Below, in pieces: positions 1 to 64,000 of a stretch of DNA of 64,000 bases. This DNA comes from Paraspadella gotoi (lineage: Eukaryota > Animalia > Chaetognatha). The notes below the pieces were generated by a model. That model saw nothing but the letters and a program-made list of their open reading frames with translations, was not told the origin of the DNA and ran no database searches. Position 1 is the stretch's first letter. Each line of letters opens with the position of its first letter. The position numbers were made by a program, and so were the translations under genes. Location: contig CM119267.1 of NCBI GenBank assembly GCA_051294375.1, forward strand, positions 14,253,694 to 14,317,693, read 5' to 3'.

Positions 1-2594
1 CCAAGGGAAAACTACTGCGGTCGGAAATCAAAGAATTGCAGGAAAAATACGATGAGTTGGTCAAAGCTAAGGAAGAGGTGGACGCGCTTAAGACCTCGTT
101 GGAACAAGAGAGAGATGCGATTAAACGACAATCCTTTGCTCTTCGCACGTTGCCTGAAGATTACGACTATCTACAACAAGAAGTGCAAAAATTGTCCGAT
201 GGTAAGATTTTCATTCTCTTTAGAATATGTTCTATATCTGTCATGTATTTGTCAAAAAACAAAGTATTTCGAGTTGTTAGGTTTTTAGATATAGGGTGTA
301 CTAATCTACCAATGCTTATTATTTATTATTCAGAAAAAACGTTTCTTGGCGAGGAGCTCAAGCGCATCCAAAGCGAGGCTGCCAATGCCAAGGGCGAGCA
401 TCATTCTCTGCAGATAGAGTATACGAAGCTTCAGGGGGAGTACCAAAACTACAAAAACATCTACGACGAAATGGATATTCAGTTGCACAAAATTGCAAGC
501 AAGTGTGAAACTCTAGAAACGGCAAACGATCGTTTGGAAGACGACAATCGCAACCTGATGATTCAGCTTCAAACGATGATCACACAAAACGCGGAACTGT
601 TACAAACGACTCTTTCCAACAAAGATGTTTATCACGAAGAGGAGCGTCAAATGATAGAGCGTCTCAACGCCCTACAGCGGCAAAAGGAAAAGTTAGAGGA
701 GAAGATAATGGCGCAATATCGAGAAAAGACGCCGAAAAAGTCCAAGGGAATCGGAGCGACTTTGGTACGAAAGGCACGTCAAGTAATTAGTCGCAAGCCT
801 CGCAGTCGAAGCAAGGATGGTGTCAAGTACAAGGATAGTGAAGGTAGCGGCGCCGAGAGTGACGCAAAGAGCAAGCGCCCCGAATCCTTGGCGTCCTCGC
901 CTTGGTCCATGCGTGTCCGTACCCCGTCGGTTGAATCCCCGTCCCCGAGAAACTCTTCCGGTCTCGGTTTCCACCAGCGGAAATTGGCGTCGTCTACTAA
1001 CGCACTTAACGTAATGAGCGTCGGAAAAGCCTATCATCAATCGATACCCAGGTCGAACGAGTCGCGAATGTATAGATCCTCCGAAAACGTTCTTGACTCT
1101 TCTCTCTACGACAATTCTCCGCGCGATGATTACGACCTCAACAACCATCACTACGACGTGATAGAAAGCGTTCATCCGGCGAACCTAAATACGGAGATTC
1201 GGCCGCCGGATACGTCTTCCTACGCGTCGGGTGACGCTGGGAGCGGGGACGGGTGCCAGGAATTTCCCGTTCCTAAAGAGGCGCCCATTAGCCGTCCCAA
1301 TTCATCGCGGGCGTCCTCTCACGGCAGCTCCAGCATCTCGGAAGAGACAGCGGGCACCGGAGCTTCGGAGGAAAAACGTGCGTCTCGAATTCCCTTCTCG
1401 ACTCCGGAGCACGCCGCCGCTGCCTCACCCTCGTCATCCCAAGCCAGCTTCCCGACGCAAAATTCGTCGCCGTCGTCCCAGGCCGACTCTCGTGCCCGCA
1501 AACCAAGTTCTCCGGGCAAGGAGTTGCTCAGCCTGCAGCAATTCCTGGCCGAGTCGGAAAAGACTCCTCGTACGAACAAAACGAGAAACTTTGTGTTCTG
1601 CGAGGAAAGCCCTGTCGACGTTGGCCAATCTGCGCCCGACGTGAGGCGAAGGAACGGGCTTCCGCCGCAGAACAGTTTGGATTCCAAATTTGCCTCCTCG
1701 GACGGTCCCGAAGTCAAGGGTCTTAATTACTACAGTTCTACCCTTTCCCGGAGGACGGAGCAGTCGATGAGCCATCCCCGTCCCAAGTCTACCTTTGAAT
1801 TAACCTCCCCAAAGTCTTTGTCCATGGACGCGGACAACCTCAACGGAAACCAGGCTTCCTCTCATGAGCGCCATCGTAACGGCGTTGATTTGAACGATTC
1901 CTCGCCTTCCAATACGTCTTACGCGGAATCTAAATTTTCCACGCTCGACAATCGTAAGAAAGGCACTGGCCCGCCGTCGGTGGCCTTGCGCCATGGCCCT
2001 TCCCGGCCTGTCTCCACTCCAGCACGTCGGTTCTCGCACGGCGGTATTTTAAACTCGGCTTCTTCACCACAAAGCTCGGCCGATCGACTGGACTGGCTGA
2101 TCGGCAACAGTCCAATCCGATCTAGCGAACATCATCTATTTCCAAATGATGGCTCTCCGGTATTGACTTCTGTTCCAGAAGTTGGCAATCGTAACGGAAG
2201 CGCAAGCACAACATCCTCTCGTCAATCTGCTGCCTCGTCGACACCGGTGCGACCTATCCCAACTCGACCCTCGCAGTCTTCCACCGGATCCCCTTTTGCG
2301 CCCTCTTCGACCCCTCGCGCCAATAGGTCATCCACGCAGTCGGCACCGGCCAAAGATATTCATGCTCACCCACCGCCATATGTTAGTCCTTCTGCCAGAA
2401 CGATAACTAATAAAAAACCCACCTCAGAGCAGACTGTCGACTCTTTTGGCTCGTCTGTGAGGGGGCAAGTGAAGCCAAAACTTTTGACGACATCTCCCTC
2501 AGACGGGGAAAGTGGGGAAAGGACCAAACCCTCGGATGGTCAACCAGACCCTGTGGAGAAAAACTCCATCTGGTACGAATATGGATGTGTTTAA
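1..2594 (+). CDS. CCDC88C: Girdin/Daple (CCDC88 family) protein, 5'-partial; intron 202-333
   Basis: Coiled coil LQRQKEKLEEKIMAQYR. The motif SPGKELLSLQQFLAESEK resembles the GIV GBA motif (SPGSEVVTLQQFLEESNK). C-terminal WYEYGCV is the Daple-type PDZ-binding motif. GT-AG intron 202-333 is read through by the ORF track. Confidence 0.88.
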   Translation, partial: KGKLLRSEIKELQEKYDELVKAKEEVDALKTSLEQERDAIKRQSFALRTLPEDYDYLQQEVQKLSDGKIFILFRICSISVMYLSKNKVFRVVRFLDIGCTNLPMLIIYYSEKTFLGEELKRIQSEAANAKGEHHSLQIEYTKLQGEYQNYKNIYDEMDIQLHKIASKCETLETANDRLEDDNRNLMIQLQTMITQNAELLQTTLSNKDVYHEEERQMIERLNALQRQKEKLEEKIMAQYREKTPKKSKGIGATLVRKARQVISRKPRSRSKDGVKYKDSEGSGAESDAKSKRPESLASSPWSMRVRTPSVESPSPRNSSGLGFHQRKLASSTNALNVMSVGKAYHQSIPRSNESRMYRSSENVLDSSLYDNSPRDDYDLNNHHYDVIESVHPANLNTEIRPPDTSSYASGDAGSGDGCQEFPVPKEAPISRPNSSRASSHGSSSISEETAGTGASEEKRASRIPFSTPEHAAAASPSSSQASFPTQNSSPSSQADSRARKPSSPGKELLSLQQFLAESEKTPRTNKTRNFVFCEESPVDVGQSAPDVRRRNGLPPQNSLDSKFASSDGPEVKGLNYYSSTLSRRTEQSMSHPRPKSTFELTSPKSLSMDADNLNGNQASSHERHRNGVDLNDSSPSNTSYAESKFSTLDNRKKGTGPPSVALRHGPSRPVSTPARRFSHGGILNSASSPQSSADRLDWLIGNSPIRSSEHHLFPNDGSPVLTSVPEVGNRNGSASTTSSRQSAASSTPVRPIPTRPSQSSTGSPFAPSSTPRANRSSTQSAPAKDIHAHPPPYVSPSARTITNKKPTSEQTVDSFGSSVRGQVKPKLLTTSPSDGESGERTKPSDGQPDPVEKNSIWYEYGCV

Positions 2595-3717
2595 ATTCTA
2601 TGAATCGAAACCAATTTACGTAGAACTCATAGAAATAATTTAACCGCTTTGAAGTGCATTTTCTTTTTTAGGAGTAGCATATGTTCGTATGTTTCTGGGA
2701 TATGTATTCTAACAAACGCAATTTTTTTTTTATTACCCAGATGTCATGAACTGTTGTTTTTTTTATACTTTTGTGGGCAAATTTGTTTATGCGTTTAACA
2801 GCAATTAGAAAGGCCTTTTGTCGACTTTTATACACAAATCAATATAAATATATTTTAAGTTTTTTATGCATTCTTTGTTTATTGTTAATCAATGCAATGC
2901 AAATAGCGCCTTAAGCTCCTTTGATTATATTTTAACTACCACGAAGTGCACATGAATTTTTCTTAAATCTTAAAGTGTGATATAAATTTTAGAATCTTTT
3001 AGGAACCGATATAACCAATTAAGCTACAAGAGTAATCTGTTAAGAATCGAAAGTGAGTCGGCGCATCTAATGTGGTGGAATCAAGTGGTAGAATTAACGT
3101 CGTGACACATTGTTACCGAATCTGATTCACTCGCACTAAAATTTTCATAATTACTATGTTGTCAAATATTGAGGAAAAAAAGATTGACGATTCGATTGAC
3201 AATTCACTAAGGTCACGATGATGACAAAGTTCTTGATTAAAGAAAAGAAAAGTCGATAAACAAATGCAGTGGCATTATTAACTTATTAAGAAATTCAGCT
3301 ATTTATTTACTTTGGATATTAGTCAAGAAAAGTTCGTGTGAACTGATTAGTGGTTAAAATGACATGATATGAAGGAGCGAGTTGAAACACATCTTGGCAA
3401 ATTTTTATGATAATCATGATACGCACTTAGATTGATTTTTCACTCATTGAATAACCGGCTTTTTTTATCGACGCACCTGAAATGCTTACTTGAGATTGCA
3501 CGTGTTCTTTAACGATAGTTCCCATACCTATGTCACTGCTATTGATATTTTGTGTAACACTCGTTTTATGGCAGTTTTCGAGTTTTGATTTTTCACAATT
3601 CTTTTTACACGATATCATATATCATTTTACAAGAACCCAAAAAGCCAAATCTTTTACCGCAATTGTTCTCATACATTTATTTCAATCTTTAGCCCGAGGT
3701 AACATTAAGTTTTAAAG

Positions 3718-5194
3718 ATGAAGCTTCAAGAGGTGAACGAGCTGTTGGAGGAGGAAAGCCGTAAACTCGATGAGATTCTCAAACCCTTTGTCCTCTCTGA
3801 GGCGAATATCGTCAAATTCGTTCAACTTTTCTCAGAGGATCTCGACAAGGGCCTCGATGCCAAGGCCAACGCCGAAGCGGACATGAAGTGCTTTCCTACT
3901 TATGTTTCTCGCCTGCCGACAGGCAAAGAGCGCGGCCGTTACCTGGCCCTTGATTTGGGTGGAACCCATTTTCGCGTGCTCCTTGTTAACCTTGGGGACT
4001 CCGCGTCGCCGGAGGGGGACATGAAATTCAAGACTTTTGACGTTCCCGACGACCTCATGGTCGGATCGGTCTACCCACTGTTTGACCACGTCGCCGCCTG
4101 CATCGCTAAATTCGTCGAAGAAGAAGGACTCAAGGACGAACCGCTGCCGCTTGGATTCACTTTCTCCTTTCTTTGTCGCCAGATCACGTTGAACAACGCC
4201 GTTCTCGAGAGCTGGTCAAAGGGGTTCAGCTGCGACGACGCTCTGGGGCAAAATGTGTCGCAATTGTTGAGCGACGCGCTGGCTAAGCGCGGAGATACTC
4301 GGGTGTACTGCGTCGCCGTCATTAACGACACGACTGGTACGCTCATGGCTTGCGCCTACAAAGAACCGTTAACCTCCGTGGGCCTGATTCTCGGCACCGG
4401 GACCAACGCCTGTTACATTGAAGATTTGAAGAAAGCTAAATTGTGGAACCGCAACGAAATTCCTTCAGATCGCACTCATGGGATCATCAACACGGAGTGG
4501 GGAGCCTTTGCCAATGGTGGCTGCCTCGACCGAGAAGGGATTCGAACAGACATTGACGCCGCGCTCGACGCCAAGACCAACAACGTCGGTGGACATATTT
4601 TTGAGAAAATGCTGTCTGGAAAATACCTCGGCGAAATAGTCAGATTGATCCTTTGCCGTGTTTACAAGGCGGGATTATTATTTCAACGCGAGGATACTTA
4701 TGCGTTCGACGAAGACAAAGGAAGAAATTTATTTTTGACTAAGTAAGGTTATCAACTTTTTTTTGATTCACTAATTGAAGTTGCCGATTTAATATTTTTT
4801 TTATTTTTTTAAAAGATTTATGTCCGAAATCGAATCTGAATCCAATCCTGATTTCTCTCTGACTCGACGCGTTCTGGACGAGCTCGGAATTCGCGTGGCT
4901 TCTTCCCGTGACTGTCAAATTGTACGGCGCGTGTGCCAAACTGTCTCGGTACGTTCGGCGCGATTAGCCGGAGCCGGGATTGCGTCTTTGCTTAATCGTA
5001 TGGGCCGCGATAATGGAACGGTCGCCGTTGATGGGAGTCTTTTCCGGTTCCATCCTACATTTCGCGAGAACATGGCGGAGACGATTGACAACTTGCTCGA
5101 AGATGGTCGGAAGTTCAAGATTGTTTTGTCAACGGACGGAAGTGGGAGAGGAGCTGCTTTGGTAGCAGCTGCCGCTGTGGGCCGTGTCAGTTGA
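3718..5194 (+). CDS. HK: Hexokinase; exons 3718-4742, 4816-5194
   Basis: Motifs YLALDLGGTHFRV, LPLGFTFSF, INDTTGTL, GTGTNACY, NTEWGAF, VAVDGS, DGSGRGAAL. A 73-nt GT-AG intron joins ...FLTK/FMSEIES. Confidence 0.96.
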
Positions 5195-6141: not shown

Positions 6142-8718
<2,577 letters not shown>

Positions 8719-9300: not shown

Positions 9301-12300
9301 ATGTCGACCACTATCGAAATTCCCCTTCGAGACACTGACGAAGTAATTGAGTTAGATCTGGACCAGCTGCCTGAAGGTGAAGAAGTCTTGGGAATTTTGC
9401 AACAGGAGAAGGCTCCTTATAACATTTGGGTGACGCTGGCTTTGGAATACTACAAAAATGGAAACATTGAAGATTTCGTTCGTTTGCTGGAAGCATCTCG
9501 CACCGATGCCGGTATCGACTACAAGGATTTTGAGCGCGACCAGATGCGGGCGCTCGATACCCTTGCCGCACACTACGTACAACTTGCGCACAAAGAAAAG
9601 AACAAAGACAAAAAGCGAGAATTGTTTACTCAAGCGACGCTTCTCTACACTACTGCCGACAAAATAATCATGTACGATCAAAATCACTTACTCGGTCGTG
9701 CGTATTTCTGTTTACTCGAAGGTGACAAGATGGATCAGGCCGACGCTCAGTTCAACTTTGTGCTCAACCAAGCTCCCAACAGCATCCCTTCGCTCTTAGG
9801 CAAAGCTTGCATAGCTTTCAACAAAAAAGATTTCAGAGGAGCATTGGCCTTCTACAAAAAAGCTTTGCGGGCTAATCCTAGCTGCCCCGCTGACGTTCGA
9901 CTTGGCATGGGCCACTGCTTCGTCAAGTTGAATAAAATGGAAAAGGCTAAAATGGCGTTTGAACGCGCCTTGGAGTTGGACAAGAAATGCGTCGGTGCCC
10001 TGGTCGGTCTCGCTATTCTGCAAATGAATCTCAAAACCCCCGATGCCATCCGAAGCGCCGTTCAAAAACTGTCACTCGCCTACCAAATTGATTCCTCAAA
10101 CCCTATGGTGCTCAATCATTTGGCCAACCACTTTTTCTTTAAGAAGGACTACCAGAAAGTACAGCACCTGGCGTTGCATGCCTTTCACGGCACCGAGAAC
10201 GAACATATGCGCGCCGAAAGCTGTTATCAGTTGGCGAGGGCATTTCACGTTCAGAACGATTACGATCAGGCTTTTCAGTACTATTATCAAGCAACCCAAT
10301 TTGCTTCCTCTTCTTTCATCTTACCACAGTTTGGTCTCGGCCAAATGTACATATACCGCGGGGACACTGAAAACGCGGCTCAGTGCTTTGAGAAGGTGCT
10401 GAAAGTTCAGCCGGGTAATTATGAGACGATGAAGATACTTGGTTCTCTTTATGCAAATTCTATGTCAGCGACGAAGCGAGATACGGCTCGTGCGCATCTC
10501 AAAAAAGTTACGGAGCAATTTCCCGACGACGTTGAGGCGTGGATCGAGTTGGCGCAAATTTTGGAGCAGAACGACATCCAGGGCGCACTTTCCGCGTACG
10601 GGACGGCGACGAAAATTCTAAAGGAAAAAGTACAAGTTGAATTGCCCCCAGAGATTTTGAACAACGTTGCTGCCCTTCACTTTCGTCTTGGGAATATGGA
10701 CGAAGCCAAAAAATATTATACTGCTTCTGTAGAGAGAGCTGAGAATGAATCTGAACACGATGAACATTATTACAAGTCGATCCAAGTTACCACCAAATAC
10801 AATTTAGCCAGACTTCATGAAGCATTTTCGGAATTTGATAAAGCCGAAAATTTGTACAAGGACATCCTGAGAAAGCATCCCAATTACATTGATTGCTATT
10901 TGCGTCTTGGTTGCATGGCTCGCGACAGAGGTCAAATTTACGAAGCATCTGATTGGTACAAGGAGGCGCTGCAGATTGACCAGGACAATCCCGACGCATG
11001 GTCTCTGATCGGAAATCTTCATTTAACGAAACAAGAATGGGGTCCGGGACAAAAAAAGTTTGAAAGAATCCTCAAACACCCTTCGACGCAAAAAGACACT
11101 TATTCACTTATAGCCTTAGGAAATGTTTGGCTTCAAACGCTACATCAACCGACGAAAGATAAAGAAAAAGAAAAACGCCACCAAGATCGCGCTTTAGACA
11201 CTTACAAACAAGTGTTGAAGTTTGATCCCCGAAATATTTGGGCGGCTAACGGGATTGGAGCCGTCTTGGCCCAAAAGGGTTACGTGTCTGAGGCTCGAGA
11301 CATTTTCGCTCAAGTAAGGGAGGCCACAGCGGAATTTTGCGACGTATGGCTCAATATCGCGCACATATACGTGGAGCAAAAGCAAATGGTGGCCGCGATT
11401 CAAATGTACGAAAACTGCCTAAAAAAATTTTTTAAGTATCCTAACGTAGAGGTGTTGCAATATCTTGCAAGAGCCTATTTTCGGGCCGGCAAATTATCAG
11501 ACGCCAAAGCGACATTAATCCGGATTCGTCATGTGGCGCCCAACGATACGGTGCAACTTTATAACTTGGCACTCGTACAGCAAAAACTCGCTACGTTCAC
11601 TCTGAAAGACGAAAAGTCCAATCTAAAAACCGTAATGATTGCTGTCAAGGATTTGGAATTGGCGCAAAAGTATTTCGAGTACCTGAGTCATCACCGATCT
11701 GCCGAAGATCGCCTTAAGTACGACGCCAACCAGGCCGCAACCGAAGCTAGGCAATGCGGGGACCTGTTGTCCCAAGCTCAGTACCACGTCCAGAGGGCGC
11801 GCAAACTCGACGAAGAAGAGAGAGAGATGAAAATCAGACAGGAGGAAGAAAAAGCGAGGATCAAGGCGACGCTCGAGGCCGCGCAACGCGAGAAGGAAAG
11901 AAAGAAAAACGAACAGGAAATGGCTCTGCAGGACAAGAGGAAGCAATATTTGGAAAAAACGGAAAAGATTAGAAAATTGGAAGAAATATTGGAGGAGATA
12001 AAGGCTCCGAAGGGATCAAAGGGCGCCAAGCAGAAGGGAGGCGATATTTCGGATTCTCCCGCGACGGACGACGAAGGCGAAGATGGCGGCGAGAAGGGAG
12101 AGAAGACGACAAAGGAGAAAAAGGCGAAAAAAAAGAAAGAGAAAGGGGAAAAGCGCAAAAAGGAAAAAGAAGAAAGAGGACGAAAGCGGAAGCGAGGAAA
12201 AAAAGGCGGCAGTGGAGACGCCTCCGAGGACGAACGGCCGAAAGGAAAGCAGAGCGCTAAGATTAAATCTCGCGCCTTCGTCGCTTCAGATTCAGAAAGT

Positions 12301-13017
12301 GGTTCCGACGGCGAAAATAAGAGAAGTCGTAGCGCGAGTGGAGGGAGCGACGATGAAAGACCCGCAAAGAAGAAGATCAAGTCGGGCCGAATCAAAAAGG
12401 TTGACAGCGACAGCGAAAATGAAGAAAAATCCCGGTCGGCGAGCCCGCCGAGTCGGCGGGCGTCCGGCAGCCGATCAGGATCGGGAAGTCGTTCCAGAAG
12501 TCGAAGTGCTTCCGGTTCTCGACGTTCAGGCTCTGGAAGCCGATCAAGGTCTCCTAGTGGATCGAGAAGCGGTTCGGGAAGTCGATCAAGATCACGTTCT
12601 GGCAGCCGTTCAGCATCTGGCAGTCGTTCTGGTTCGGGTAGTCGTTCGGGATCCGGGAGCCGTCGGTCTGGATCGAGATCAAGATCAGGCAGTAGATCAG
12701 GATCAGGTTCCAGGTCGCGATCTAGATCAAAGTCTGGGTCACGAGCAGGATCTCCAGCTTCAAAAGCATCGGGTTCTCCGCCGAATTCTCCTAAGTCTAG
12801 GAGCGGCGCGGGGTCACCCTCGGGATCCCCCGGATATCCTGGATCCCCGGGAAGTCAAAACAGATCCAACCCTGGTTCTCCTGGAAGCGAAAAAGGGTCA
12901 AAGCCTGGCTCTCCGGGCAGCGTTTCAAATCCCGGTTCTCCGACTGGCAGCGGACAAGGCTCCGAAAAAGACTCTCTACCCGGAAGCCCCATGGAAACGT
13001 CAGATAAAGAAGATTAA
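9301..13017 (+). CDS. CTR9: PAF1 complex subunit CTR9, single exon
   Basis: N-terminus [29 protein letters not shown], many TPR repeats, Lys/Glu-rich then Ser/Arg/Gly-rich tail. Confidence 0.97.
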
Positions 13018-19275: not shown

Positions 19276-19826
19276 ATGTCTACTGGTCCACAAGATGAGA
19301 AAAAAGAGAGCGCTCTAAAAGATCCGTCAAGTACCGAAACTAGATCATTGGGTGAACCTTCTCAGGCCAGCGGAAGCAAACCGTTAAAAGGTGAGCAATT
19401 ATTTTACATAAATACAGTAGCCGTTAATACTATTAGTAGAACAAAAGTTAATTGCATTAACGTTTAAGAAGTATTTGGAATTTGTCGTACTGCGATTGTC
19501 ACAGCTTTCTTGGTTTTTCAGCTTGGTTACTTGATTACTACATTTTTTTTTAAATTGCACCTCATATGACAGATTTCGATTTTTTTTTCAACAGTGGGAA
19601 AAAAGCGCCGTCGCCGAGGGCAGGGATGGACTCATAAGAAAAAATCCAAATCCGGTAATTTTGGTGTAATACGTAAGAATAAGTCTTGAGACAATTTTAC
19701 GCAGTTTTTTACCTTGAGGGCAAATTTTAGAGAGTTGTTTATTTAGGACTCGTGAGTGGCGCTACCAAGGGGGTTGATTCGAAAGTTGCGCCCAAAAGAA
19801 AAGGAGCACCGCCGAAAAATCCATGA
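19276..19826 (+). CDS. Small basic orphan protein, 84 aa; exons 19276-19390, 19595-19654, 19747-19826
   Basis: Good splice sites (AAAG|gtgagc, caacag|, G|gtaatt, atttag|) give a continuous frame containing VGKKRRRRGQGWTHKKKSKSG...KRKGAPPKNP*. Confidence 0.65.
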
Positions 19827-44521: not shown

Positions 44522-44794
44522 ATGGCAACTCCTTTGGCTGATCCTAATCAGTTGTTACCTCTTGAACTGGTGGACAAATGCATTGGGTCTAGAATCTGGA
44601 TAATCATGAAAAACGACAAAGAGATCGTGGGGACTTTGCTCGGATTTGATGATTTCGTAAACATGGTCCTCGAAGACGTCATCGAGTACGAAAACACGCC
44701 CGAGGGGCGACGAATCACGAAACTGGACCAAATCCTACTCAATGGAAACAATATCACAATGTTGGTGCCGGGGGGAGAAGGACCGGAAGTTTAG
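44522..44794 (+). CDS. LSM5: U6 snRNA-associated Sm-like protein LSm5
   Basis: [43 protein letters not shown]...[19 protein letters not shown]. Confidence 0.98.
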
Positions 44795-49881: not shown

Positions 49882-50957
49882 GGAATTGAAAAAAAATTCC
49901 AGAATTGATATATTGTGGATACAATATAATGAAATATGTAAGACACGATGAAAGTTAGCTTGGCGTAGTGTATGCACTATGCAGCCATAAATGGATCTCT
50001 GAATAGGTTATATGAAACATCATGTTTTTTTCATATATATCAAAAAAATCAATGCAAAATAATATTTGGTAGTTAGGATATGACTAAATATAGGATAATT
50101 TAAAAAAAATATATAATTTTTTTTTATAATAGTCCAATTCTATAAACCATTTTATCCATTTTTGTCCACCCCTCATATCTTGTTGATAAATTACTTGGTT
50201 CATCTTAGAATACTGAATTATAAAAAATTATCCGAAAAAATTGAATCCTTCCTTCAATACATTTATTTATCTATTTATCTGTAACTTTAACCTGTCATTA
50301 CACTTGAGTGAATTGATGGATTGGTCTGAAATTTTGTGTGTGGCCAGAAAAGGGGTTTGGACAAAATTATTCTGGTAAAAATCGATTTAAATAAAAAAAA
50401 AAAATTGATTTAAAACTTAGTTTTTAAATTCAAAATTATGAAATAAATGATCAGAGAGTAAGATCTCTGTCTCAGCTATCATTTGGTGTATAATTATAAT
50501 ATTTTTTAATATTATATGGTTTAATCAACAAATCAAGGAGTACAAACTTTTGTCAGATTTCCGCTTCCACGAGTCTGCTTCTTATTATTTTTTTTACTAA
50601 TTTTCCTTTTTTGTAGATAAGCGAGTGTAAAAAAGAAGTCTGGTATAACTGCAAGTATTATTAATGTAAAACTTCAAGTTTGGCTCACAGATTAAGAAAT
50701 ATGATAAAAATTTGCATGGGTAAGCTTCGCCACGTTAACTTGCATCATGTCGTAAATACATATATTGTAAAACAAATGCCCGAAAACACTGCACATTCCA
50801 AAGAATTAGTGAAACCTAGACATACATTTAGTCGTATTTTTTTATATTTATTTTCAACATTCCCCGTTTATTTACTAGCTGCTTTTGCTTTTTATTGAAT
50901 TGTTACTTTCACAAGTGCCTTCTTTTAACAGGCTTCTTTTCCGTAACACCAGCAGCC

Positions 50958-52630
50958 ATGGACATAGAGAAGGTGGCAAACAATTTTAAGGTTTTAGATA
51001 TCGATTCTGACGGGACGCCTAAATTTACCCTCCATCAATTTTCTCAAACGTTGGCGTACATATTAATGGTCGATGACCCGGCCCCCCTCGCCAAAATTCA
51101 TGTGTTATTATCTAACGCGCCGATCAAGTGGCTTTTTCCCAATAACGATAGCTCGGCTTTTGTGGAGGTGGTGAGACGGCTCTCTCTTCGCTCCACGGAT
51201 CCGGCTTTCGTCCTCAAAGGGAAAGGACGGCCGGCGGATGGATCGACTGTCAAATTCGTCGCTCCAGCGCTATGTCGTGAAATACTTGCCCTCCTCGTCT
51301 CGCTTTTCTCCCGTATTCACCTAGACATAAAGAATCTGAGCGAAACTCCGCAAAAGAGCGTCGTTCGCTGTACGGCCGTCGAAGTTCTATCATGCGTCGC
51401 ACTTTATGTGAGCGGGGAGATTTTCAACGACGACGAGCTCGTCGCATCGGCGAAGGAGTTGGAGGAGGTTTTTGTTGGTCTCAATCGAAACTGTAGCGTC
51501 ACCGAAATGCTCGTCGGATGGCGTGTGGAAGGAGTCTGCGTGACTGATAAGAATATTCCCTCCTCCACTCCGTTGGTTGGAAACGGTTTTATGAAAAAAA
51601 TGTGTCGTCATTTAACGCAACCCTACTTGACAAAGGAACATTTCTCAAAGCATCTCGTCCAACAAGTGAGCTTTGTGTGGCTGCTGGAGAGTGTCGAGTC
51701 GCCGAGCCTCGATGGTTTTTTAGATTATGTCTTCCCACCGACTCTCTGCTTCTTGGACAGCTACGATAATCGCTGCAAAATACTCGGCATTCGTTGTTTA
51801 TCTGAGATTTTGCAAAAAATCAAAGCTACCTCAATATTACGCCAGAACAGACATCTCGTTGTCGCCAAGACCTTGCTCCATCAGTTAAACTTTCATGACT
51901 TGCCGTTGATGCGCGTTCTTCACCCTTGTATTTTGATCTTCGTCGAGCGCCATCACCTGGCGATGAAGAAAGGACTCCTTTCATGCAATGTTTCTTTGTC
52001 ACCACTAATTGGTGTCGGACCGTCGCTTTACGACCTAAAAGATCCGACCACTCCGAAAAACCAGTTTTTTGACAAGATGATTAGTCTTATCGAATTGGAA
52101 TCGGACAAGAACGTGAAGAGAGAGCTGATTCGGCACATCGGCGCTCACATACGCGGCATGGGGATCGTTTTATGTAGATACCTAAAGAGGACCATTAATA
52201 TGCTGACTGATGTCCTTGCTTCTCGGGTGAGTGAGACTTACTTATTTGTTTTTAAAATCCGACTGTGTAACTTAAATCAACGCAGGACGACAAGAACGAA
52301 ACTGCCCGACTTTTGGTCCTCGACGCTATCTGCGACGTCATACGCGTCGTGCCACAACGCCTTACTAAACACGTGGTGCGGCTCGGCAATCCGCTCGTTC
52401 ATATTATGGTCGAAGTCTACGAGCCCATTTACACTTATTCCGAGTTCACGCGCGACAACGTGGTTGAGAAGGCGCGGGTTACGCTCTCGCTTCTCGCTGT
52501 ATCCGCGCCAGAAGATATGCGCAAATTTTTCACTATGTTGCCCATCGCTTTCTTCGACGCGCGGGTGCGAAAAATCCTTAATGATATCGAAAAGATTTTG
52601 AAGAAAGTCGAAGAGAGAAGGGATTGTTAA
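50958..52630 (+). CDS. TTI2: TELO2-interacting protein 2; intron 52227-52285
   Basis: YVFPPTLCFLDSYDNRCKILGIRCLSEIL...LRQNRHLVVAKTL and MGIVLCRYLKR resemble TTI2. Confidence 0.75.
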
Positions 52631-52896: not shown

Positions 52897-55800
52897 ATGG
52901 AAGAGGACGGAGAAGTTTTTGAAATAACCGATTTTACTACAGCATCCGACTGGGAACGCTTCGTTTCAAAATTGGAAGAAGTTCTTCACGAGTGGAATCT
53001 TATCCATGCTCCATCGTTCTATCCTCCGCTCACTAAGGACATCCTCGCAAAAGGGTCATGGCGGGAATCCATACAGAGCATTCAGTTCGCTGATTTTCAC
53101 TTTTTCGTGAAGCATCATGAGCTACTCTTTGATTCGCCGGAACAAGATGACAACGCTTCCCTAAAGTCACTCGCCCGAAAAATCGAGGGGAAAAAAAGGC
53201 AGTCGTCTCCTACTCCATCCAGCGGTGAAGACGATTGCGATCACGATGGGAGTTGTCACTTTCCTGTAGCGCTCGAGGACATGATGGTTATGGAGAGCGA
53301 CTTTCCGGCGCGATGCCACTGTTTGGCAAGGTGGCACGGTCTTCGCGAATTCGTCGTCATCCAGCCAGCTTCAGCTAGCGATGCCATTCTGCAAGACTCA
53401 AAGGCTAACGTGCTCTTGTCTAGCGTTTCCATGGCGGTCAATAACGCTAACTGTCGAATACCAGTGTTTGTTCAGACCCAAGAGTGGCGAAAAAAATTTT
53501 ATGTGGGATGGTGCGAGGGTCCAGGTGCAAGAGTGAATTTTGAAATGGTTCATTTGCAAAAAGCTCCTTATCAATACTCCCACTTGTCAGGTAATTTTTT
53601 GAGCTGCAATAAACGTTTTAATCCTTTTAGTTTTTTTTTTTTTTTTTACCGGATTTTATATAATAATTTTAGTATTACAAATTAGCTGCCAATTAGGTTT
53701 TTTTTAGTCGGATCTGCTTTCAGCAGATCCCGACTCTATAATTCACTTTGTCGGTCCGTCGGTCCGCCCCCTCAATATTGTCGGGCACTCACTTATATCA
53801 TGTCAGAACATCGAATTATGATAAATTATGCAAAAAAAACGATGTCCGTCCGTCCGTCCATCTGTCTGTCTGTGTCTGTCTGTCTGTCCGTCCGTCCATC
53901 CCACCTTAGCAAAAAACACCAATTACTCGTGATTGGATGGATTGATGGATTGGAATGAAATTTTGTGTATGGGTAGGGAAGTGTGTGATTGAGCTGTATA
54001 TGAAGTTTCGATGGAATTATGAGTAATTGGTGTTCAAATAGTGAAATTTATTTTTAAATTTTTTCCATTTAAACTCATTTCCACGAGTGGATGGGGCGAT
54101 TGACTAGAAAGTTTGTATTTGGGTAGAAAAGTGTGTGATTAAACTGGAAATCAAGTTTCGATGGAATCGTTTGAGTGGAAATGAGTTTAAATGGAAAAAA
54201 CAAAGAACCCATTTCACTAATTGATTATGCTTTTTTTTCCTTTTTATTTTAAATGTAAATGCAAGATGTATTAATTAATCAAATAATTAATCAGTTAATT
54301 AATCAATTAGTCAATTAATTAATCACTAATTAATTAATCAGTCAATTGATTTAATTAATTGCCTAATTAATTAAATAACTTGAATAAATTATTATTAATT
54401 AATTATTAATTATTTAATTACCGATAATGATCGTGGGCAGATCCGACATTGTTTGCTCAAACTTGTTTAAATAATATTTCATTTCATTATCAAGGATTGT
54501 TGGAGGTTTTTAAAGAAAAAATTACGCAACATAGCTGCGAGATAACGGTACCGCCGGTAACAATATCAGTGCGCATGACTTATTCCTTGGATCTGGAATC
54601 TTTTTGTGCGCAAGGATTTTGGCCGCAGGCAATGCCTGACGTTTCCTTGGGTAGGAAAATCGTATGTTCTTTTCAAAAATATTAAAGAATATCTTCTATT
54701 CAAATATTTATCCAACTATTCGCTGAGCAGGGTGCATATATTTTATCGTTTACATATATATATCTTAACCTATATTTAACTTTTATATTTAACCCCTGCT
54801 TTTTGATGACGAAGGCGGTGAGGATTCAGTCGGAATCCAAGATTTCAGCGTTTTGCCCTTCGGTCCGATCGAGGATCCAGTTCGAAATATGATCATCGCT
54901 ACAACATGGCCTTGTCTCTCAGAACATCTCGTCACCGAGACGGATTCTTACTCGGATTTAAATCCTTTACAAGTCAGAAAAATGGAGTTAATCTAATTAT
55001 CAAGTAATGCTGTCAGATTTAAAACTAATTTAGTTTGACTTTTCAGGCTCCTATTTGGACGGCTCGGGCTGTAATGGCTGAAAATGTCTCTGGTTTGCTT
55101 GGAGAATGTTTAAAACTTTTCATAGACGCCTGCTGTAATTTGGCATCGACGGAACATTTGTTGTCCCCCAAGATAGTTTCCTCGCCCAGCAGCGAAGGAA
55201 ATAAGGAAAGTTGCACGTTAAGGGTATTTGCGTTTTTTATGAATCAAATATTTATATGATTATTCTAAAACACAGGACATCGCCGAGGCGTTGCAGCGCG
55301 TAACTCCCGGCTCACCGATAGAAGCCGCAATGTCCCGCGTCTCCCGTGCTGTCACTGATCAAGCATCACGTCTCGCCGCACGTGACTTCGATAACGCCCC
55401 TCTCTCAGAAAATTTGCTTAATCGGGTGCTGTGGTATATTTTTCCAGACGCAAGGCCTGACGATTACCGTCCAAACCGAGGTGAAGAAGCTCCCGATTCA
55501 TACCGTTGGTCCAAGGTCAAGGAATTCGAGTCTTTGGTCAAAGCGTCCCCGCCGTTTTCTTCGTTGTCGCACCGACTTTCCCTTGCTTTTGCCGCCGTCA
55601 ACTATGGCTTCAAGGGCGGCCTGCCTGGGATCGCCTTTTTATGGCAAGAATTTGTTATGGAGCTTCGCTTTCGCTGGGAGAATTCCGTGCTTATTCCTTT
55701 ACTTCAGCGGGGAATTCCCGACACAGCGACCTGTTTGCTCCATCAAAAGTTGCAGCTGCTCAATTGCTGCATCGAGAGAAAACGGGCGAGAGAGCGTATG

Positions 55801-57111
55801 CAGAATCCTTTAACCGCTCTGACTCCGGCGACTGGAACCGTGAAAGTCACCGAAAGAGAGAAAAGCGGGGAAAGTGATTCTGATGACGATTTTTATGAAT
55901 GTTCCGAAAGTCTCGACGATTATTCTTTTATTTCTCGGACTCCTTCATTAAATCCTATCGAAAATCTTCCGGAAGAAGAGGGCGAAGGTCGGCTGCGCCT
56001 TTGCGGCGTCTTAAAGCTTTTAGAAAGACCCGAAAAAAGTATTTACGTACCCATCACTCAAGATCCTTCCCCAATGACTGAGGACATGTTGCACGAGCAC
56101 GCCGAAGTCTTAACACGATTAGGATCGGGCCCAGAGGGTGCTCATCTTCGAGCCCAAATGCAAAGCGCATCCCTATTATCAGATATGGAAGCTTTTAAAG
56201 CTGCGAACCCAGGCTGTATTTTAGCGGATTTCGTGCGTTGGTATTCGCCGCGAGATTTCATCGAAGACGACCGACAACCCGCGGAGGAGACAATTCCCCC
56301 CGCGTCTGGTCATCTATCATCTCGCATGTCGATCGAAGGCAACATCTGGCTAGAGACTTGGGCTCAGGCCAGGCCCTGCCCTGCCAAACGTCAACGCCGC
56401 CTATTCGACGACACGCGTGAAGCCGAAAAGGTTCTTCATTTCCTGGCTAACCTAAAGCCCGGCGAGGCTTGCCGCATGATGCTGCCATGTCTTCTTCAAG
56501 CAGCCGTCATCGACGTTCACGAGCTTGCCGCCAACGTAAAGGGCGACGTTCCCACCCTCGACACTTTGTTGGACTCTATATATTCACGCGCCGTTAGAGC
56601 TACCCGAGGCTCGTCCGACATCGGGGGCGGCTCTAGCAAAGAGGATGACTTGGCGTTGGCGGAGGAGGTGGTGGCACTAATCGCGAGGGCGGAAAGTACG
56701 ATCGCCCGGGCTCAAAGTTTGCAGTTCAAATTGGATACTTACGGTGGCGATCCCGAGTGCAAAAAGGAGGTCGATCGATTCGTTTTTCAGCTGCTTGAAA
56801 ACACAGAAGTTAACGTTTTCGGCGCCGGACGCGGACACGTGGGATCATCGTTGCAACGACTGCTTGAAAACCAAATGGAGGCGCGACAAGAATCAGATGT
56901 CGTATCGGAGGTGAACCCCACGACAAAGCGGGACGCAAAGATTCGCCCTTCGCTTTTTCCAACGGCTTCGGCCAAAGAGTATATTTTTAGAGTCAAGGTG
57001 CCGCGACCAGCTCTTTTTTCGAAGCAATTACCGCAACGAATGTTTGCCGTAGTTGCCACAAACGAGTTTAGGATAGCGGGAGCTTTTACCGAGGATACCG
57101 TGTTTTTTTAA
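52897..57111 (+). CDS. RAB3GAP1: Rab3 GTPase-activating protein catalytic subunit; introns 53591-54494, 54651-54814, 54973-55046, 55224-55275
   Basis: EVFEITDFTTASDWERFVSKLEEVL, LPFGPIEDP, LLHQKLQLLNCCIE, LLSDMEAFKAANPG, DFVRWYSPRD, EFRIAGAFTEDT. Confidence 0.95.
53698..54467 (+). mobile_element. Family A HINE-like element in RAB3GAP1 intron 1
   Basis: TTTTTAGTCGGATCTGCTTTCAGCAGATCCCGAC start, GTCC/GTCT microsatellite, GGGCAGATCCGACATTGTTTGCTCAAACTTGTT end. Closely similar to 21544-22412. Confidence 0.75.
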
Positions 57112-57248: not shown

Positions 57249-60200
57249 ATGGAAGGGTCCGATTTAACCGTTGTCAGCTCTTTAACGGAAGATGAAAATG
57301 ATGAGACGATCACAGTGAGCCTCGAAGATGTCGTTGTAGCCCAAAGTCCCGAGCTCCGCGGCAGCAAATTTCAAGTCGTTTCTCAAGAGATCCAAGATTG
57401 CAAACCACTTAAGAGGAAACTGTCCCATGATGAAGTCGAGGACTCCATATCCTCGACTTCTTTCTCCAAAAGAATTAAAGTAGTCGCCAACGCTAACGTT
57501 CTCCGGCGGACCGAGTCTCATCCTCGTTCTGCTTTCGCTGTTTCCGATCAAAGTGGAGTTTTTCTTCGGTCAAACTTACCTTCACCCAGCGAAAGGATCA
57601 TTGGTGGTGACGAATTGGCACAGGTATTGAAACAAGAAAATATACTTTTTTATTTTTCCAGCCTTTGCCTTTTTTACGAAGTACGTATTTTTAGGGTGAA
57701 TTTGTGGCTCAGAATCTGCTAGTAAATGCTCCAAACGTTTACCCAATTTGTGAAAGAATTGAGCCTTCGTATAAATGTTCAAAATGTGATGTCGTTTCTA
57801 CGTCATTCGAAGTTTTCCAACACCATTTACAGGTATATATTGAATTATTTTGCCATAGCTTCTCTTTGCAAGATCGTAATTCGCCTCTCCTTTTCCAGAG
57901 CCACCAAAAGTCAACCAGCTATAACAAAAAAAGCAACGGTAACGTTGCCGTTCCATGTGATTTTTGTCCATCAATTTTTACTAGCGCCGAAGAATTTGCT
58001 CTTCACATAAAATCAGTTCATTTATCTGGGGCATCGAGTGATTCTCATTTCGAAGAGCCTTCGCAGCCTTTGGCAGAGACCGTGTCTTTTTCGGTAAATA
58101 ACGATGTACATACTGAACCTGTTGAGTCTTCTTTATCTGCTGATTTTATGACCGTTGCTCAGGACGAGCTTGGCAATTTGCTTCTTGTGGCAGAAAGTAA
58201 CATTGCTGTCGCTCAGAATAGGGAAGTAAATTCCATTTTTCCAGAAAATGTCGACTTTTTTCAAGATGCGGAAACTGGCTTGTTATATTCCATAAGTTCA
58301 GAATCTAACCTTCAAAATTCTACACTTATAACTCCCCACACAGCAGTCAATAATGCTGCCTTTGATACTCAGACGTTGACCAATTCCAACAATGCATGCT
58401 CAATATCTTTTATGGATGGTCCTTTGACAGTTGTTGATAGTGAAAACAATCTTTTTCGCAATCAAGCGGCGACTACTGTAGTCGATACGCTGTCAAACTT
58501 AACAAAATCAGTGGCAAAAGAAACCGGGCTCCATAATGCAGCAAGGTTTGAAGATGGAAGAGGCGACTCTTCTCTAAGGATTGATGATTCGGAGCTACAA
58601 AATCTCTTTCCTGTTAAAGATCGCCAAGAAATTCCAGAACCTACTGTCGTCGAAAATATCGGTTGCGGAGTCAATTATGTACATCCTATTTACTTTTGCG
58701 GAACTTGTCAATTTAACACCGACTCTATAGTTAAAATTAGCCAGCATATTGTTGCCACTCATCCTTTAAGTGCAAATCCGCCGATTAAACCAAATTCAAT
58801 AAAATCGGGGCTGAAACGATGTGCGTTTTGTTCTTTTACTTATAAAGTCATTCATCGCTTGACCGTTCACTTAATGCGAAGACACAAACCTACGACATCA
58901 AAGACAAACCAGTCCGAAAGCGCCTCCCTAAATAAAATTGTCTCTGATCCAAGAAGTTGTACGCTCTGCGGTTTCTTCGCCCAGAAAAGCAGTGCAATGT
59001 TTCGCCATTTATTGCAAGTAAGATTAGTTAAGTCAACTTGAAATGTAGAAGTCATGGTTACTAATAAAAACGTTTGTTTTAGGCTCACAAATTGGTCGTC
59101 TTTACAAATGAGTTTGGTAAAGAATATGTTGTAGATGCCGCCAGATGGTGGAGTTTACAGGAACAATATCAGAACGCGCAAAGGCCTGCGTTGCAAGGTA
59201 TAATTAATACATGTTACAATGAATTAGCTGATAATGATTAAGATATATATTATACAATTATACATAATTTTAAATAAAGCCTTGTTTCATTTTTATTTTG
59301 TCGCATGAAAAAATATGGCTTCGAATTATATATTTTTATAAATTGTTGAGATTCAAATAAATTGGGCATAATATTAAAAACAGAAGGTAGCTGAAATTAA
59401 GTAATTAAGTAGCATAATGGAAAATACAATTGTCGCGGTTACTTTCCAGCTATTTTTCGGCATTTTAATATAAGAATCGAAAAATAAAATTTAGATTTTG
59501 AGAAACTTTGGCCTCTTGTAATTTATTTATTTTTTTTTCTTTTATACTAATTTCCTGTTCTTTTTTATTTATTTTTAAGTTAAACTGTTACTATTAAAAA
59601 TCTCTGCCTTTTCTCAGTCTCATGGTTATTGCATCATCTCCATTAGGATATATTCATGGATGAATCTTAATTCATATGTCTAAAAAAAGAGCAGAATTAA
59701 AAATAAATTGATGCTGTAGATGCTCCAGAATATTCTTTATATATTGTAAAGTATCAATAAAAGTTATATGTCTCCAGGTAACCTTTCTGTAAGTAAAGTT
59801 ATCATTTATATTTATATCTGGATGTATTATCAGAATCAAATATCAAACGAGTACAAAAAAAGAAAAATTAAAGATTTTAGACCTTGCCAGAAAATTAAAA
59901 GTTTTTGATCTCGCTTAGTAGTAGGGTAGAAAATGCTCCTCACCCATGACCATATTTTTTACAATAATCCTCATTATAATAAAATTACAGGAAATGCTGC
60001 CAACTTTTAAAAAAATGCTGCAAAACTGAAAAATTAAGGTATTTCATTCATATCTTGAATGGAATTAATGATACGCGGAGAAAACCCGTTTTAATCTTTA
60101 GAGCGTTAAAAACTGTACATGTTAGACATCTTACTTGATGAAATAAGCAAATTTTTTGTGATAAGATACTTTTTAAAAATGGATGTCTTGCATTTTACAA

Positions 60201-62956
60201 AAGGGTATTTTAGACTATTTTTTAAAAAGCTATGTTTGTTATTTTAGATCATTCAATATAAACAGCTAATTGACTTTCTATTGATGGAAGTAATTTTTTT
60301 ATTCTAATTAGTTTATGATTTATTAATTTTTTTATTATTTCCACTAAAATCTTGTAACTTATAGAAGCATTAGCTTCAATTTCTGTACTGAAAGAAGCAT
60401 GTCAGTTCCTAACCTAAAGAATTAAGGTTTGCCGCTGGCTAATTCATTTAAAAAGCGGGACTGATAGTTCAAAATATTGGGTCCAATACCTTTTTTGGAA
60501 ATAACTTTGGGTCCTTTTTGAAAACAGATGATCCTAAATTAAAACTGACCGATAAAACTAGGAGGGGTTACCGAAGGACCAACAAATAAAATTATAAAGG
60601 TAGAATTTGCCTTAAGCTTAAGTTAAGCAAATCCAGCTAAAAAGTATGCTATATCAATTTTTAACTTTCTATGTATCGTCTGAAAGCTGAAATCAAAATG
60701 ATTTTAAAAATATAATTAGTTATATACTTAGTAAAACCGGACATCCTCTTTTGGAAGTATTTGTATTCTTTTTATAATTAATAATTTTATGCTGTTGAGA
60801 AAGAATCTTTTTATTCAGTCTTAGGGAGGTTAGAATATATATAAAATCTATTTATGGGCCAAAAAATATATTTAACAATGAAATTAACCGACATTTCCAA
60901 ACCGCGATAATTTTTTTTCCATCTTGGTAAGAATACAACTTTTTCAAAAATTATCATTAACCCTCACATCCCTTAACACCACCCTGGAAACTAATTTTAG
61001 TTTTGGTAACTTTTGTAGTTTTAATTTAAAGATTAAAAAAAAAATGTATGTGTATAAAAAATACGCTTTTTCTAATATTAATATGCTTATTTTGAGTGTA
61101 ATATGATAAAAAATACTAGTGAGTTATAAAAAAAAGTGGTATATGAAAATATTTAATTTTTTTAAGGTTAAAATAATTTTTTTTAATATAAATTAATGTT
61201 AAATAATATAATATATTTTAATTCTAAAATCAAATGATATATATATCAAAATCCCCAGAGGGTAAATTAAGTATAGGTTTGATAATAAATAAAAAACATT
61301 ATTGTAATGTGATAAATGATTGTTTTTATAAAATTGTTATAAAAATTGAGATGGCCAAATTTTTCTTTTCATCCATCTTTGAACCTCACACCTGTGTTTT
61401 TAATTGCATTTTACCAAACATTAGCTCAGTCGAATCGAAAAAAGCTAATTTTTTTAGATATATCATTTTCTCTCTGAGATTTTGATATTAAATGGGTAAA
61501 AGGTTTTGGCGACTTATTCATTTTCCAAGATGGTACTCTTCACCTTCACCACCCCAAACCTTAACCAGTCTTAACCTTAACTACCCTTAACCTTAACTAC
61601 CCTTAACCACCTATAACCTCAACTACCCTTAACCACCTATAACCTCAACTACCCCTCACCTCAACTACCCCTTACCACCCATAAACCCAAACCTAAAAAA
61701 ATATTTATATATGCGAGTAGTAAAATAACCGACTGGGTAGGTTCCAGTCGGCTTAAGTAAATATAGTGCTTTTATCCCACCTGATTCAAGAAAAATGCGT
61801 ACGACTTATTAAAAATATTTTACACGCGTCAAACTGTCTCTTGCGCGTTAGGAAAAATGGTACTGAATTTTAAATTGTCCCGAAATTCTTTCAACCCAAG
61901 CTTTTTGTTTTCAAAGTGGAACTGAAGAGCGTGATGACGAAGGTCCTCGAATCACTGCCGGCGACATCGGTGATGCGTCGACATTCCGTTTCCGATCAAC
62001 AGATTTCTACGTCAGACGACGATGTTATGATTCTCAACGTGAACCTCGAAGAAGCAAAACCCTCGTCGACACCGAATTCGATAATGGAACCGAATTTTTC
62101 GAATGAACCGATTACCAATGGGTCCGCTCCTAAAGTTTTAAGCCGCGCTTCGGGCTCTCGCAGTCGCCCTCCATCCCAATCACTTTCGCCCGTCGCTATT
62201 AGCGCTCAAGCCCGCGTCACCGTTTCCGAAAAATCGGGCTCAAAAAAAGCAACGGCGGCCAAAGGTTCCTTCTCCCCAGTTACCATCATTCCAGCCTCTT
62301 CCGGGTCCAAATCGAAAAAAGGTGCAGTGGTGAATCGCGACGTGGGGAAACCCTCCGTTCTTTCACGAATGGCACCTCGATCCATAACTATATTGGAGGA
62401 TTCGTCATCGAATGCTAAGAGCGTTGGAGGAGCTGGCCAGACAAATGCTCAAGTTGCCTCATCCACTCCGAACATCCAACGACAGGCTGCGACAACCGGG
62501 TCGCTTGTTTACCATTCCGTTTCTACTGAATCGGCCGAGCCGGAACCGTGGCTCGATGCATCTCGCGCTCTTGAAGCCAATCTCGAATTGCCATCAAACC
62601 TGCCCGTTGCAAATGACCAATTTGTCTACCTTCAACTGTCCAATGGAGATATCGGAAAAATTTCCACTGCGGACTTTTTACAGTTGCAGCAACAAGCATC
62701 ATGTCCGGAAAGAACCAGCGTTGGATCAATTCGACTAAACCAGAATCAGAATGACGACGTCAATTATAAAGTATTCGAAGAATTTTATCAAACCGATTCA
62801 TCTTCTTCCTCTTCGTTAATTGTTCAAGGCGTTGACGGAATCGTAGGGGTCGACGAACGAGTAACTTTTAATGAACCACTTGGCGCCCCGGATGCATCCA
62901 TAGGGGCTCAACTGGTTGATATCGATGGACAACTTTTTCAAATACAAGTACCGTGA
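57249..62956 (+). CDS. Multi-C2H2 zinc-finger protein; introns approx. 57624-57695, 57833-57898, 59017-59082, 59198-61916
   Basis: Five dispersed C2H2-like fingers (e.g. CDFCPSIFTSAEEFALHIKSVH, CGTCQFNTDSIVKISQHIVATH). The phase-1 donor at 59198 matches the acceptor at 61916, joining the 61916-62956 ORF as the last exon. Confidence 0.75.
61545..61755. repeat. CCTTAACC/CCTCAACTACC tandem repeats followed by a hairpin
   Basis: C-rich degenerate repeats at 61545-61695, then stem CCGACTGG-GTAGGTT-CCAGTCGG at approx. 61729-61751. Confidence 0.7.
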
Positions 62957-63103
62957 TCTTGCCGTTTCTTAGCCATTAACTACATATTTCCTCTTTTAAG
63001 TTGATTTGAATAAAACGATTATTTTTATTTTTAGCTCCTGCTGATTTGATTAGACTTTTGTTATAGTTTACGTTATTGTTATATTTTTCCAGAGAAAAAA
63101 ATC

Positions 63104-63376
63104 ATGGAAAAAACCATGGCTAAGCACTTGGAGGACGCTCTTGACCAACCGGGTGTCATTGGAGCGCTGACTACCGATCAGGGCGGCCTCCCACTATGCG
63201 TAAAAGGAGCAATCAATGCCTCCAACGCGGGATGCATTGCGGCGGCGGCGGAGAAAGCTTCCATGTTACATCCTGAGAAAAGAAATCCTGTGATAATCAT
63301 TGACATTTGTGACGGGAATTCGCTTATGGTCAAGCAGGATGAGTTGAGCACCACTATCGTCCACAAAAAAAATTAA
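63104..63376 (+). CDS. LAMTOR5: Ragulator subunit LAMTOR5 (HBXIP)
   Basis: 90 aa; HLEDALDQPGVIGALTTDQGGLPLCVKG...NPVIII...IVHK, a roadblock-type LAMTOR5 pattern. Confidence 0.88.
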   Translation: MEKTMAKHLEDALDQPGVIGALTTDQGGLPLCVKGAINASNAGCIAAAAEKASMLHPEKRNPVIIIDICDGNSLMVKQDELSTTIVHKKN

Positions 63377-63394
63377 AAAAAGACAAAAGACAAT

Positions 63395-64000
63395 ATGAAT
63401 CAAACAATTCCGACGCCCTTCTGTCCCCCACTTTTACATCCTCCTCCTCCTCCCGTACCACCTCCTCCTTCTGAACCTCCTCCTACTCCTAACCACCTTC
63501 AACCTTCCTGCACTAATGAACAATTAAATAAATATAGTGACCAAAACTATTACCCATTGTCCTCCATTGAAAAAGAACTGGTGTTGGCTTTGTCTCGCTC
63601 CGGTTTCGAACGCCAAACTTTCGAACTTATCATTCCGTCGCACATTCCCGAGATTAAGCTGCAGCGTGGTCCAACCTGCGGAATTACTGCGCTTCGAATG
63701 GCCTTGGACCTGGCAAGGGAGAACAACGCTAAAATACCTTTCCTATCCGACGAGGATATTATAACTATAGCTAAACAACGGGGATTTACAACTTATGGAG
63801 AAATTTTTTCTTGTTCGAATTTGCTCGACTTGGCCAAGACGCTTTTTGTCGAAGCGGCCTCACTTGAGATGGAGTTCCCTTCGACGGACTTTCCAACGAT
63901 CAAGCACAAGGTTGTGGAACATTTGAAGTCCCGAGGAACGATTCTCGTTCCTTACGACAAGGACCGGGACTTCACCCCTTGTTCACGTGGGGGATCTAAG
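63395..64000 (+). CDS. ACTMAP: Actin maturation protease (C19orf54), 3'-partial; absent from the ORF track
   Basis: Open frame from ATG 63395 to the window end: Pro-rich N-terminus, LQRGPTCGITALRMA (catalytic Cys region), GFTTYGEIFS, ILVPYDKDRDFTPC. Confidence 0.85.
   Translation, partial: MNQTIPTPFCPPLLHPPPPPVPPPPSEPPPTPNHLQPSCTNEQLNKYSDQNYYPLSSIEKELVLALSRSGFERQTFELIIPSHIPEIKLQRGPTCGITALRMALDLARENNAKIPFLSDEDIITIAKQRGFTTYGEIFSCSNLLDLAKTLFVEAASLEMEFPSTDFPTIKHKVVEHLKSRGTILVPYDKDRDFTPCSRGGSK

Follow-up and report, generated by a model that had tools for sequence, protein, structure and literature searches.

How are 22 unrelated genes transcribed when all of them face the same way? The question is raised by a stretch of 64,000 nucleotides (nt) from the arrow worm Paraspadella gotoi (GenBank assembly GCA_051294375.1, contig CM119267.1, positions 14,253,694 to 14,317,693), referred to below as the window, in which every gene model lies on the plus strand. 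This one-way block of 22 genes is real. With a confidence a little above even, the genes are read here as a co-directional chain of a few polycistronic units that are resolved by a spliced leader (SL), and one operon of six to ten genes, somewhere between the alpha-tubulin gene and CDIN1, is likely.

Strand, content and spacing of the genes

The exon models of the window were built by hand, and several boundaries were mended after RNA joints. All 22 models translate without internal stops, and 18 have Pfam support; the remaining four (a Girdin/Daple-like protein, an orphan of 556 amino acids (aa), a HAUS5-like protein and a basic protein of 84 aa) lack a Pfam match and are all covered by RNA contigs. 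On the minus strand, none of the 120 stop-to-stop open reading frames of at least 70 aa matched Pfam at E<=0.001, and no minus-strand intron was found among the supported RNA joints in 2000-21990 and 44010-64000. The ten plus-strand reading frames tested, from 25 outside the models, gave no Pfam match either. An earlier note, made from the letters alone, had described 22 plus-strand genes with no credible minus-strand gene, and the models and the minus-strand search agree with it. It had also stated that the genes are not tandem paralogues, which holds: RAD54L and ZRANB3 share the SNF2 family, yet there are no tandem copies. Its chance figure of 2^-21 (4.8e-7) is arithmetically right, presumes independent orientation and disregards that many windows were scanned. 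The features of the window are as follows.

3..2594, plus: gene 1, presumably Girdin/Daple (CCDC88)-like, a name taken from a C-terminal motif; coiled-coil, 3' part; model without Pfam match, RNA contig piece 2000-3576
3577..3692, plus: candidate intercistronic region, 116 nt between the Girdin contig end and the hexokinase acceptor (AG at 3691-92)
3718..5194, plus: gene 2, hexokinase; Pfam; contig begins at 3693, the top-scoring acceptor
6142..8718, plus: gene 3, alpha-tubulin; three introns, all spliced in RNA; Pfam, RNA
9301..13017, plus: gene 4, CTR9; intronless, 1238 aa; Pfam
13170..14840, plus: gene 5, orphan reading frame of 556 aa; within an 11,315-nt contig
15153..16976, plus: gene 6, HGSNAT; one intron, spliced in RNA; Pfam, RNA
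17112..19109, plus: gene 7, HAUS5-like augmin subunit (weak assignment); intronless; Atlas
19276..19826, plus: gene 8, basic protein of 84 aa; two introns spliced in RNA; contig end at about 19963
20056..20877, plus: gene 9, SURF2; Pfam, RNA
20996..25346, plus: gene 10, RAD54L; Pfam
25452..26093, plus: gene 11, methyltransferase, which we take from its domain content to be METTL5; Pfam
26136..27359, plus: gene 12, TPD-motif protein, assumed from its domain content to be CDIN1; Pfam; starts 42 nt past gene 11
28256..29257, plus: gene 13, FTCD N-terminal-domain protein; Pfam
31827..34847, plus: gene 14, TET dioxygenase; intronless; Pfam (Tet_JBP, weak C-terminal C2H2 finger)
35369..44362, plus: gene 15, protein with SNF2, RanBP finger and HNH domains, presumably ZRANB3 to judge from these; nine introns; Pfam
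44522..44794, plus: gene 16, LSM5; Pfam; contig begins at 44517, off the acceptor
44972..49881, plus: gene 17, BROMI/TBC1D32; Pfam; shares a contig with LSM5
50930..50957, plus: TTI2 acceptor region, AG at 50930-31; contig aligned from 50932; top-scoring acceptor
50958..52630, plus: gene 18, TTI2; Pfam; shares a contig with gene 19
52897..57111, plus: gene 19, RAB3GAP1; Pfam; shares a contig with gene 20
57249..62956, plus: gene 20, C2H2 zinc-finger protein; Pfam; contig end 63038
63104..63376, plus: gene 21, LAMTOR5; Pfam; RNA start probably at about 63090-93 from bin depth, acceptor AG 63091-92
63395..64000, plus: gene 22, ACTMAP, 5' part; Pfam; 18 nt past gene 21

Genes 1 and 22 both run past the window ends. 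Of the 21 stop-to-start gaps, 13 measure 18-266 nt, exactly as quoted in the earlier note, which had left out the other eight (312, 521, 582, 896, 947, 1076, 1123 and 2569 nt). The median over all 21 is 177 nt, and the longest run of genes at gaps of up to 600 nt comprises ten, from tubulin to CDIN1. There are 37 introns in total, with a median length of 92 nt and a density of 0.93 per kb of coding sequence, and nine of the 22 models are intronless.

RNA across the spacers and at message starts

The RNA data consist of one run (X1) from one study, available as assembled contigs only. They were compared with 2000-21990 and 44010-64000, which together hold 16 of the 21 junctions; the other five, including the 896- and 2569-nt gaps, lie outside, in 21991-44009. 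X1 is spliced RNA, with GT..AG joints at all eight modelled introns of the first interval and, among the rows listed, at 14 of the 15 in the second, where the 15th follows from bin depth. Its contigs differ from the window by 0-1 mismatches per piece, with three differences in the high-depth contigs of 44010-64000. Two further runs from other organisms (X2 and X3) yielded merely short tubulin and repeat matches.

Listed contigs span eight of the 16 junctions, and five of these fall within the single 11,315-nt contig, which matches the window without a mismatch and contains the last tubulin exon, CTR9, the orphan, HGSNAT, the HAUS5-like gene and the small basic gene, with the cis introns spliced out. 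The LSM5-BROMI, TTI2-RAB3GAP1 and RAB3GAP1-zinc-finger junctions are each contig-bridged as well. SURF2-RAD54L is bridged by bin-depth arithmetic (156.2 predicted, 156.2 observed), and by such depth arithmetic LAMTOR5-ACTMAP is probably bridged too. The six unbridged junctions are Girdin-hexokinase, hexokinase-tubulin (where there are repeats), small gene-SURF2, ZRANB3-LSM5, BROMI-TTI2 and zinc finger-LAMTOR5. No cis joints were seen in the bridged spacers in the X1 contigs. Contig cover is lacking at 3577-3692, from 19964 and from 63039, and these stretches are counted as proof of nothing.

Four contigs begin in spacers, and two of these starts (hexokinase at 3693 and TTI2 at 50932) coincide with the top-scoring acceptor of a 130-nt window, as scored with a matrix that was derived from the 37 cis introns only and made after the contig ends had been seen. 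The chance of such a two-of-four coincidence is 0.008 for any AG and 0.0004 for the best site. Acceptor-like sites are modestly enriched before start codons relative to the reverse strand (p=0.004). The distances from an upstream contig end to the next acceptor are 116, 67-80 and 54 nt, and the zinc-finger contig ends at 63038, which is 24 nt past an AATAAA (63009-14). This spacer anatomy is what one sees in operons whose messages are separated through cleavage at 3' ends together with leader splicing. The LAMTOR5-ACTMAP spacer (63377-63394) is 18 nt long and A-rich, and the acceptor matrix found no good acceptor between the two genes.

The TTI2 contig aligns over positions 2244-3537 of its 3542 letters and has five extra 5' letters without a genome match. 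Its alignment halts before the G of the acceptor, although at 8274 the same tool does carry an alignment on over a single matching letter, and the base adjoining the TTI2 exon is therefore not G. Animal leaders mostly end in G. In Table 3 of PMC2481426, all 26 chaetognath leaders end in A, and the adjoining TTI2 letter, which is taken from the alignment stop, may be set beside the final A of these leaders of about 35 nt. The five letters are consistent with a spliced leader. That they mark the point at which leader forms merge was considered and is a weak proposal: in the same Table 3, only rare form 1 diverges at 5 nt, and the two abundant forms share 13 nt. Searches with Rfam, for tRNAs and for a leader-gene pattern found nothing within the window, and hence no SL RNA gene there.

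Under the favoured reading, the block would be transcribed from one strand as a few polycistronic units, the core unit likely holding six to ten genes, from which 3'-end processing, together with trans-splicing of a spliced leader, would probably release the individual messages. The upstream gene would be cleaved and polyadenylated some 50-120 nt ahead of the next acceptor, the bridging contigs would represent precursor RNA, and the unplaced 5' letters would belong to the leader. Promoters may lie in some of the 0.9-2.6-kb spacers. LAMTOR5-ACTMAP may remain a stable dicistronic message or have a common processing site.

Several points weigh against this reading. A contig that spans two genes is no proof of a single molecule, and a low background of DNA or nascent RNA could stitch short gaps, because the 2.7-kb intron of the zinc-finger gene, used as a silent control, shows a depth of 0.8 and 2.4 in its inner bins (18 in the first bin, against 118-221 in the exons). 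Acceptor enrichment before start codons is modest when compared with 110 non-coding windows (p=0.026), only two of 21 acceptor sites score at p<=0.05 when compared with shuffled versions of themselves, and the contig starts of tubulin (at 5953, within a repeat) and of LSM5 (at 44517, 1 nt away from an AG) miss acceptors. In the X1 contigs, the five unplaced letters at TTI2 are the candidate trace of a shared leader, and the loose ends listed (14 rows out of 289, six out of 26) contain no leader sequence. Donor-like sites lie upstream of TTI2 at 50458 and 50655, and the extra letters could stem from a cis 5' exon with a terminal A, which should, however, reach beyond five letters. Two tree results also stand on this side: a quick two-gene tree (25 rows) makes the window sister to arthropods, with a Shimodaira-Hasegawa-like approximate likelihood ratio test (SH-aLRT) value of 98, and an approximately unbiased (AU) test is borderline (p=0.048) against a tree that joins it to 11 spiralians.

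Other ways to read the block

The most far-reaching alternative places the whole window within a single promoter-poor unit of more than 64 kb, similar to a trypanosome-style cluster, with such blocks forming the housekeeping part of the genome. The 22 genes without a strand switch agree with it, and the 1123-nt Girdin-hexokinase gap drops to 116 nt once the RNA contigs are placed, so that long gaps can be long 3' untranslated regions or mobile-element fill. The P. gotoi study (PMC12460157) reports leaders on nearly half of the genes; by a 250-bp rule it assigns 18% of the genes to operons, the longest of which has nine. A simple chain model on these published operon fractions predicts 22-gene runs at only 0.03-0.06 per genome, and the one-way character of the block therefore goes beyond what the published picture leads one to expect. 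A bacterial artificial chromosome (BAC) from Spadella cephaloptera, 35A21 (158 kb), points in the same direction, being one-way over about 120 kb. Table S5 of PMC2481426 gives 23 rows with orientation for it; all 14 of the named and oriented cellular genes are plus, and the four minus rows are transposon entries, where shared table cells had to be interpreted. On the other side, six of the 16 junctions within the RNA comparison have no bridging listed contig, the mean contig depths differ along the block from 69 to 221 (which is not an expression measure), and about half of chaetognath genes are not trans-spliced, with operons of at most nine genes, in the available part of PMC12460157. A single giant unit is considered unlikely. 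The related and wider proposal that housekeeping genes have moved into one-way blocks (more than 20 genes, more than 60-120 kb) with very few promoters and leader-resolved messages is tentative, and only slightly less doubtful.

The earlier note had inferred a single very long polycistronic unit, or a few of them, nearer in scale to the clusters of trypanosomatids. Operon-like co-transcription with leader splicing, its more modest part, gains from the bridging contigs, the starts at unpaired acceptors and the unplaced TTI2 letters; the scale is not shown, given the unbridged junctions and the 0.9-2.6-kb spacers, which could hold promoters.

Gaps of 18, 42, 105 and 118 nt leave scant room for an arrangement in which most or all of the genes have their own promoter, in the upstream gene or in the spacer. 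Here, a leader could still be added via short outrons, and the contigs would have been merged by overlap, read-through or DNA background. Many trans-spliced chaetognath genes do lie outside operons, in the available part of PMC12460157, and both the intron background depth of about 1-2 and the weak acceptor statistics suit such an arrangement. However, it leaves the absence of opposite-facing genes unexplained, and the contig holes and ends just ahead of acceptors are operon-like. Separate promoters for most genes are accordingly rated as improbable, more so than the single giant unit.

Stable polycistronic mRNAs have been reported for green algae, and co-transcribed genes could be kept here as leaderless messages of that kind. 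The multi-gene contigs are fully spliced and display no branch at internal acceptors, and LAMTOR5-ACTMAP lacks an acceptor. Assembly cleaning would presumably strip short leader branches, however, and there are contig starts exactly on acceptors, one of them with foreign letters, as well as the AATAAA-linked contig end at 63038; this explanation is very unlikely. An error of the assembly, or an extreme reached by chance, is hardly credible as the source of the layout even with many windows scanned, as an independent RNA assembly repeats the gene adjacency over eight spacers with 0-1 mismatches per piece, and the introns and target-site-duplicated elements appear native.

Gene content, relationships and known operon systems

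Intron scarcity is strong across the window, to the point that CTR9, at 1238 aa, has none. Two introns have unusual ends: a GA..AG intron in RAB3GAP1 (55206-55275), backed by an RNA joint from 55203 to 55274, and a GC..AG intron in CDIN1 (26478-26600), known from the gene model alone. The third tubulin intron contains an element (7481-8224) resembling a terminal-repeat retrotransposon in miniature (TRIM), a small long terminal repeat (LTR) element, with a nearly identical pair of repeats, each about 255 nt long, a 4-nt target duplication and a primer-site-like start; a solo repeat lies in a ZRANB3 intron (35914-36170). Several short dispersed repeat families occupy long introns and spacers (21544-22430, 29295-31621, 38114-40340 and 53701-54485).

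Genes 5 and 8 are transcribed and belong to no known family; the gene 5 protein has short cysteine-rich ends, and Pfam and Atlas gave no usable match for it. The HAUS5-like assignment of gene 7 comes from an Atlas score of 0.94 with low recognition and three relatives. The TET catalytic domain fits the whole Pfam profile in a single 197-aa stretch, without a long insert, and Pfam did not find a CXXC domain. Chaetognath TETs lack CXXC as well, in the available part of PMC12460157, and the trait is not unique to the phylum.

The top named protein matches (CTR9 74-78%, RAD54L 70%, RAB3GAP1 38-43%) are scattered over phyla; in three protein searches the closest were P0121 (84%) and P0241 (58-63%), and a metagenome scan gave one distant locus (L001, 30%). 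The best matches at first suggested a mollusc-like animal, which was dropped in view of the trees. Trees that used 43 of 120 and 35 of 120 matches put the window in none of the sampled groups (arthropods, spiralians, deuterostomes), in a sampling that contains no gnathiferan and no non-arthropod ecdysozoan and in which the window is a long branch. The long-branch problems of chaetognaths are discussed in PMC2566580. Judged from the TTI2 letter, the TET without CXXC and the Spadella BAC alone, an arrow worm came out as somewhat more likely than not; were the animal instead a moulting one outside the arthropods, leader splicing and operons would be new to its phylum.

In the compared literature, animal operons reach maxima of six to nine genes, and the one-way block here has at least 22. 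Together with the Spadella BAC, it suggests that animal core genes may be nearer to the trypanosome plan than assumed, which raises the questions of how far an animal can do without a promoter for each gene and whether chromosome domains with a strand bias arise from the growth of operons. Such units would be undercounted wherever gene models are fused or a fixed distance cut-off is applied; if the one-way layout is true of arrow worms, the 250-bp rule for calling operons would have hidden it. Titles and abstracts, with few subscription papers among them, mentioned neither long runs of same-strand genes in arrow worms or other animals nor leader splicing in velvet worms, tardigrades or scalidophorans; PMC2776167 and PMC2997562 contributed nothing further.

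Among known systems, the chaetognath operons are similar to the window in their unrelated housekeeping genes, head to tail at very short spacing, and the cellular genes of Spadella BAC 35A21 are likewise all on one strand. The accessible part of PMC2481426 claims one two-gene operon and says that other BAC genes share orientation, and the word 'strand' does not occur in the main text of PMC12460157 as available. The window is unlike the published chaetognath operons in size, their maximum being nine genes under the <250-bp rule. In the SL2 operons of C. elegans (PMC1657053), a 3' end lies about 100 bp ahead of the next acceptor, and these operons share with the window this distance, T-rich spacers and core cellular genes; unlike the block here, they contain two to eight genes. 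They use a dedicated SL2 leader. The window also differs from nematodes in keeping TET, BROMI and ZRANB3, and no nematode is among the best matches. Operons of up to six or seven genes in Ciona (PMC7986045) and those described in Oikopleura (PMC11067885), both as given in the available parts, resemble the window in that unrelated genes lie head to tail and near-zero spacing is possible, as between LAMTOR5 and ACTMAP; they are resolved by one leader, as is proposed for the window. Unlike the tunicates, the window falls outside the sampled deuterostomes, and its block exceeds the Ciona maximum.

The directional gene clusters of trypanosomatids contain tens to hundreds of genes between strand switches, and cis introns are nearly absent from them; transcription starts at the cluster ends only, and each mRNA is trans-spliced. 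They share with the window a long one-way run of unrelated, intron-poor genes, whereas the window has 37 cis introns and, with both ends open, 22 genes within it. The block is not classed as trypanosomatid-type, because cis introns are common and the absence of promoters is only supposed. By analogy, it appears to work like a set of SL-resolved operons, of which it is a candidate member.

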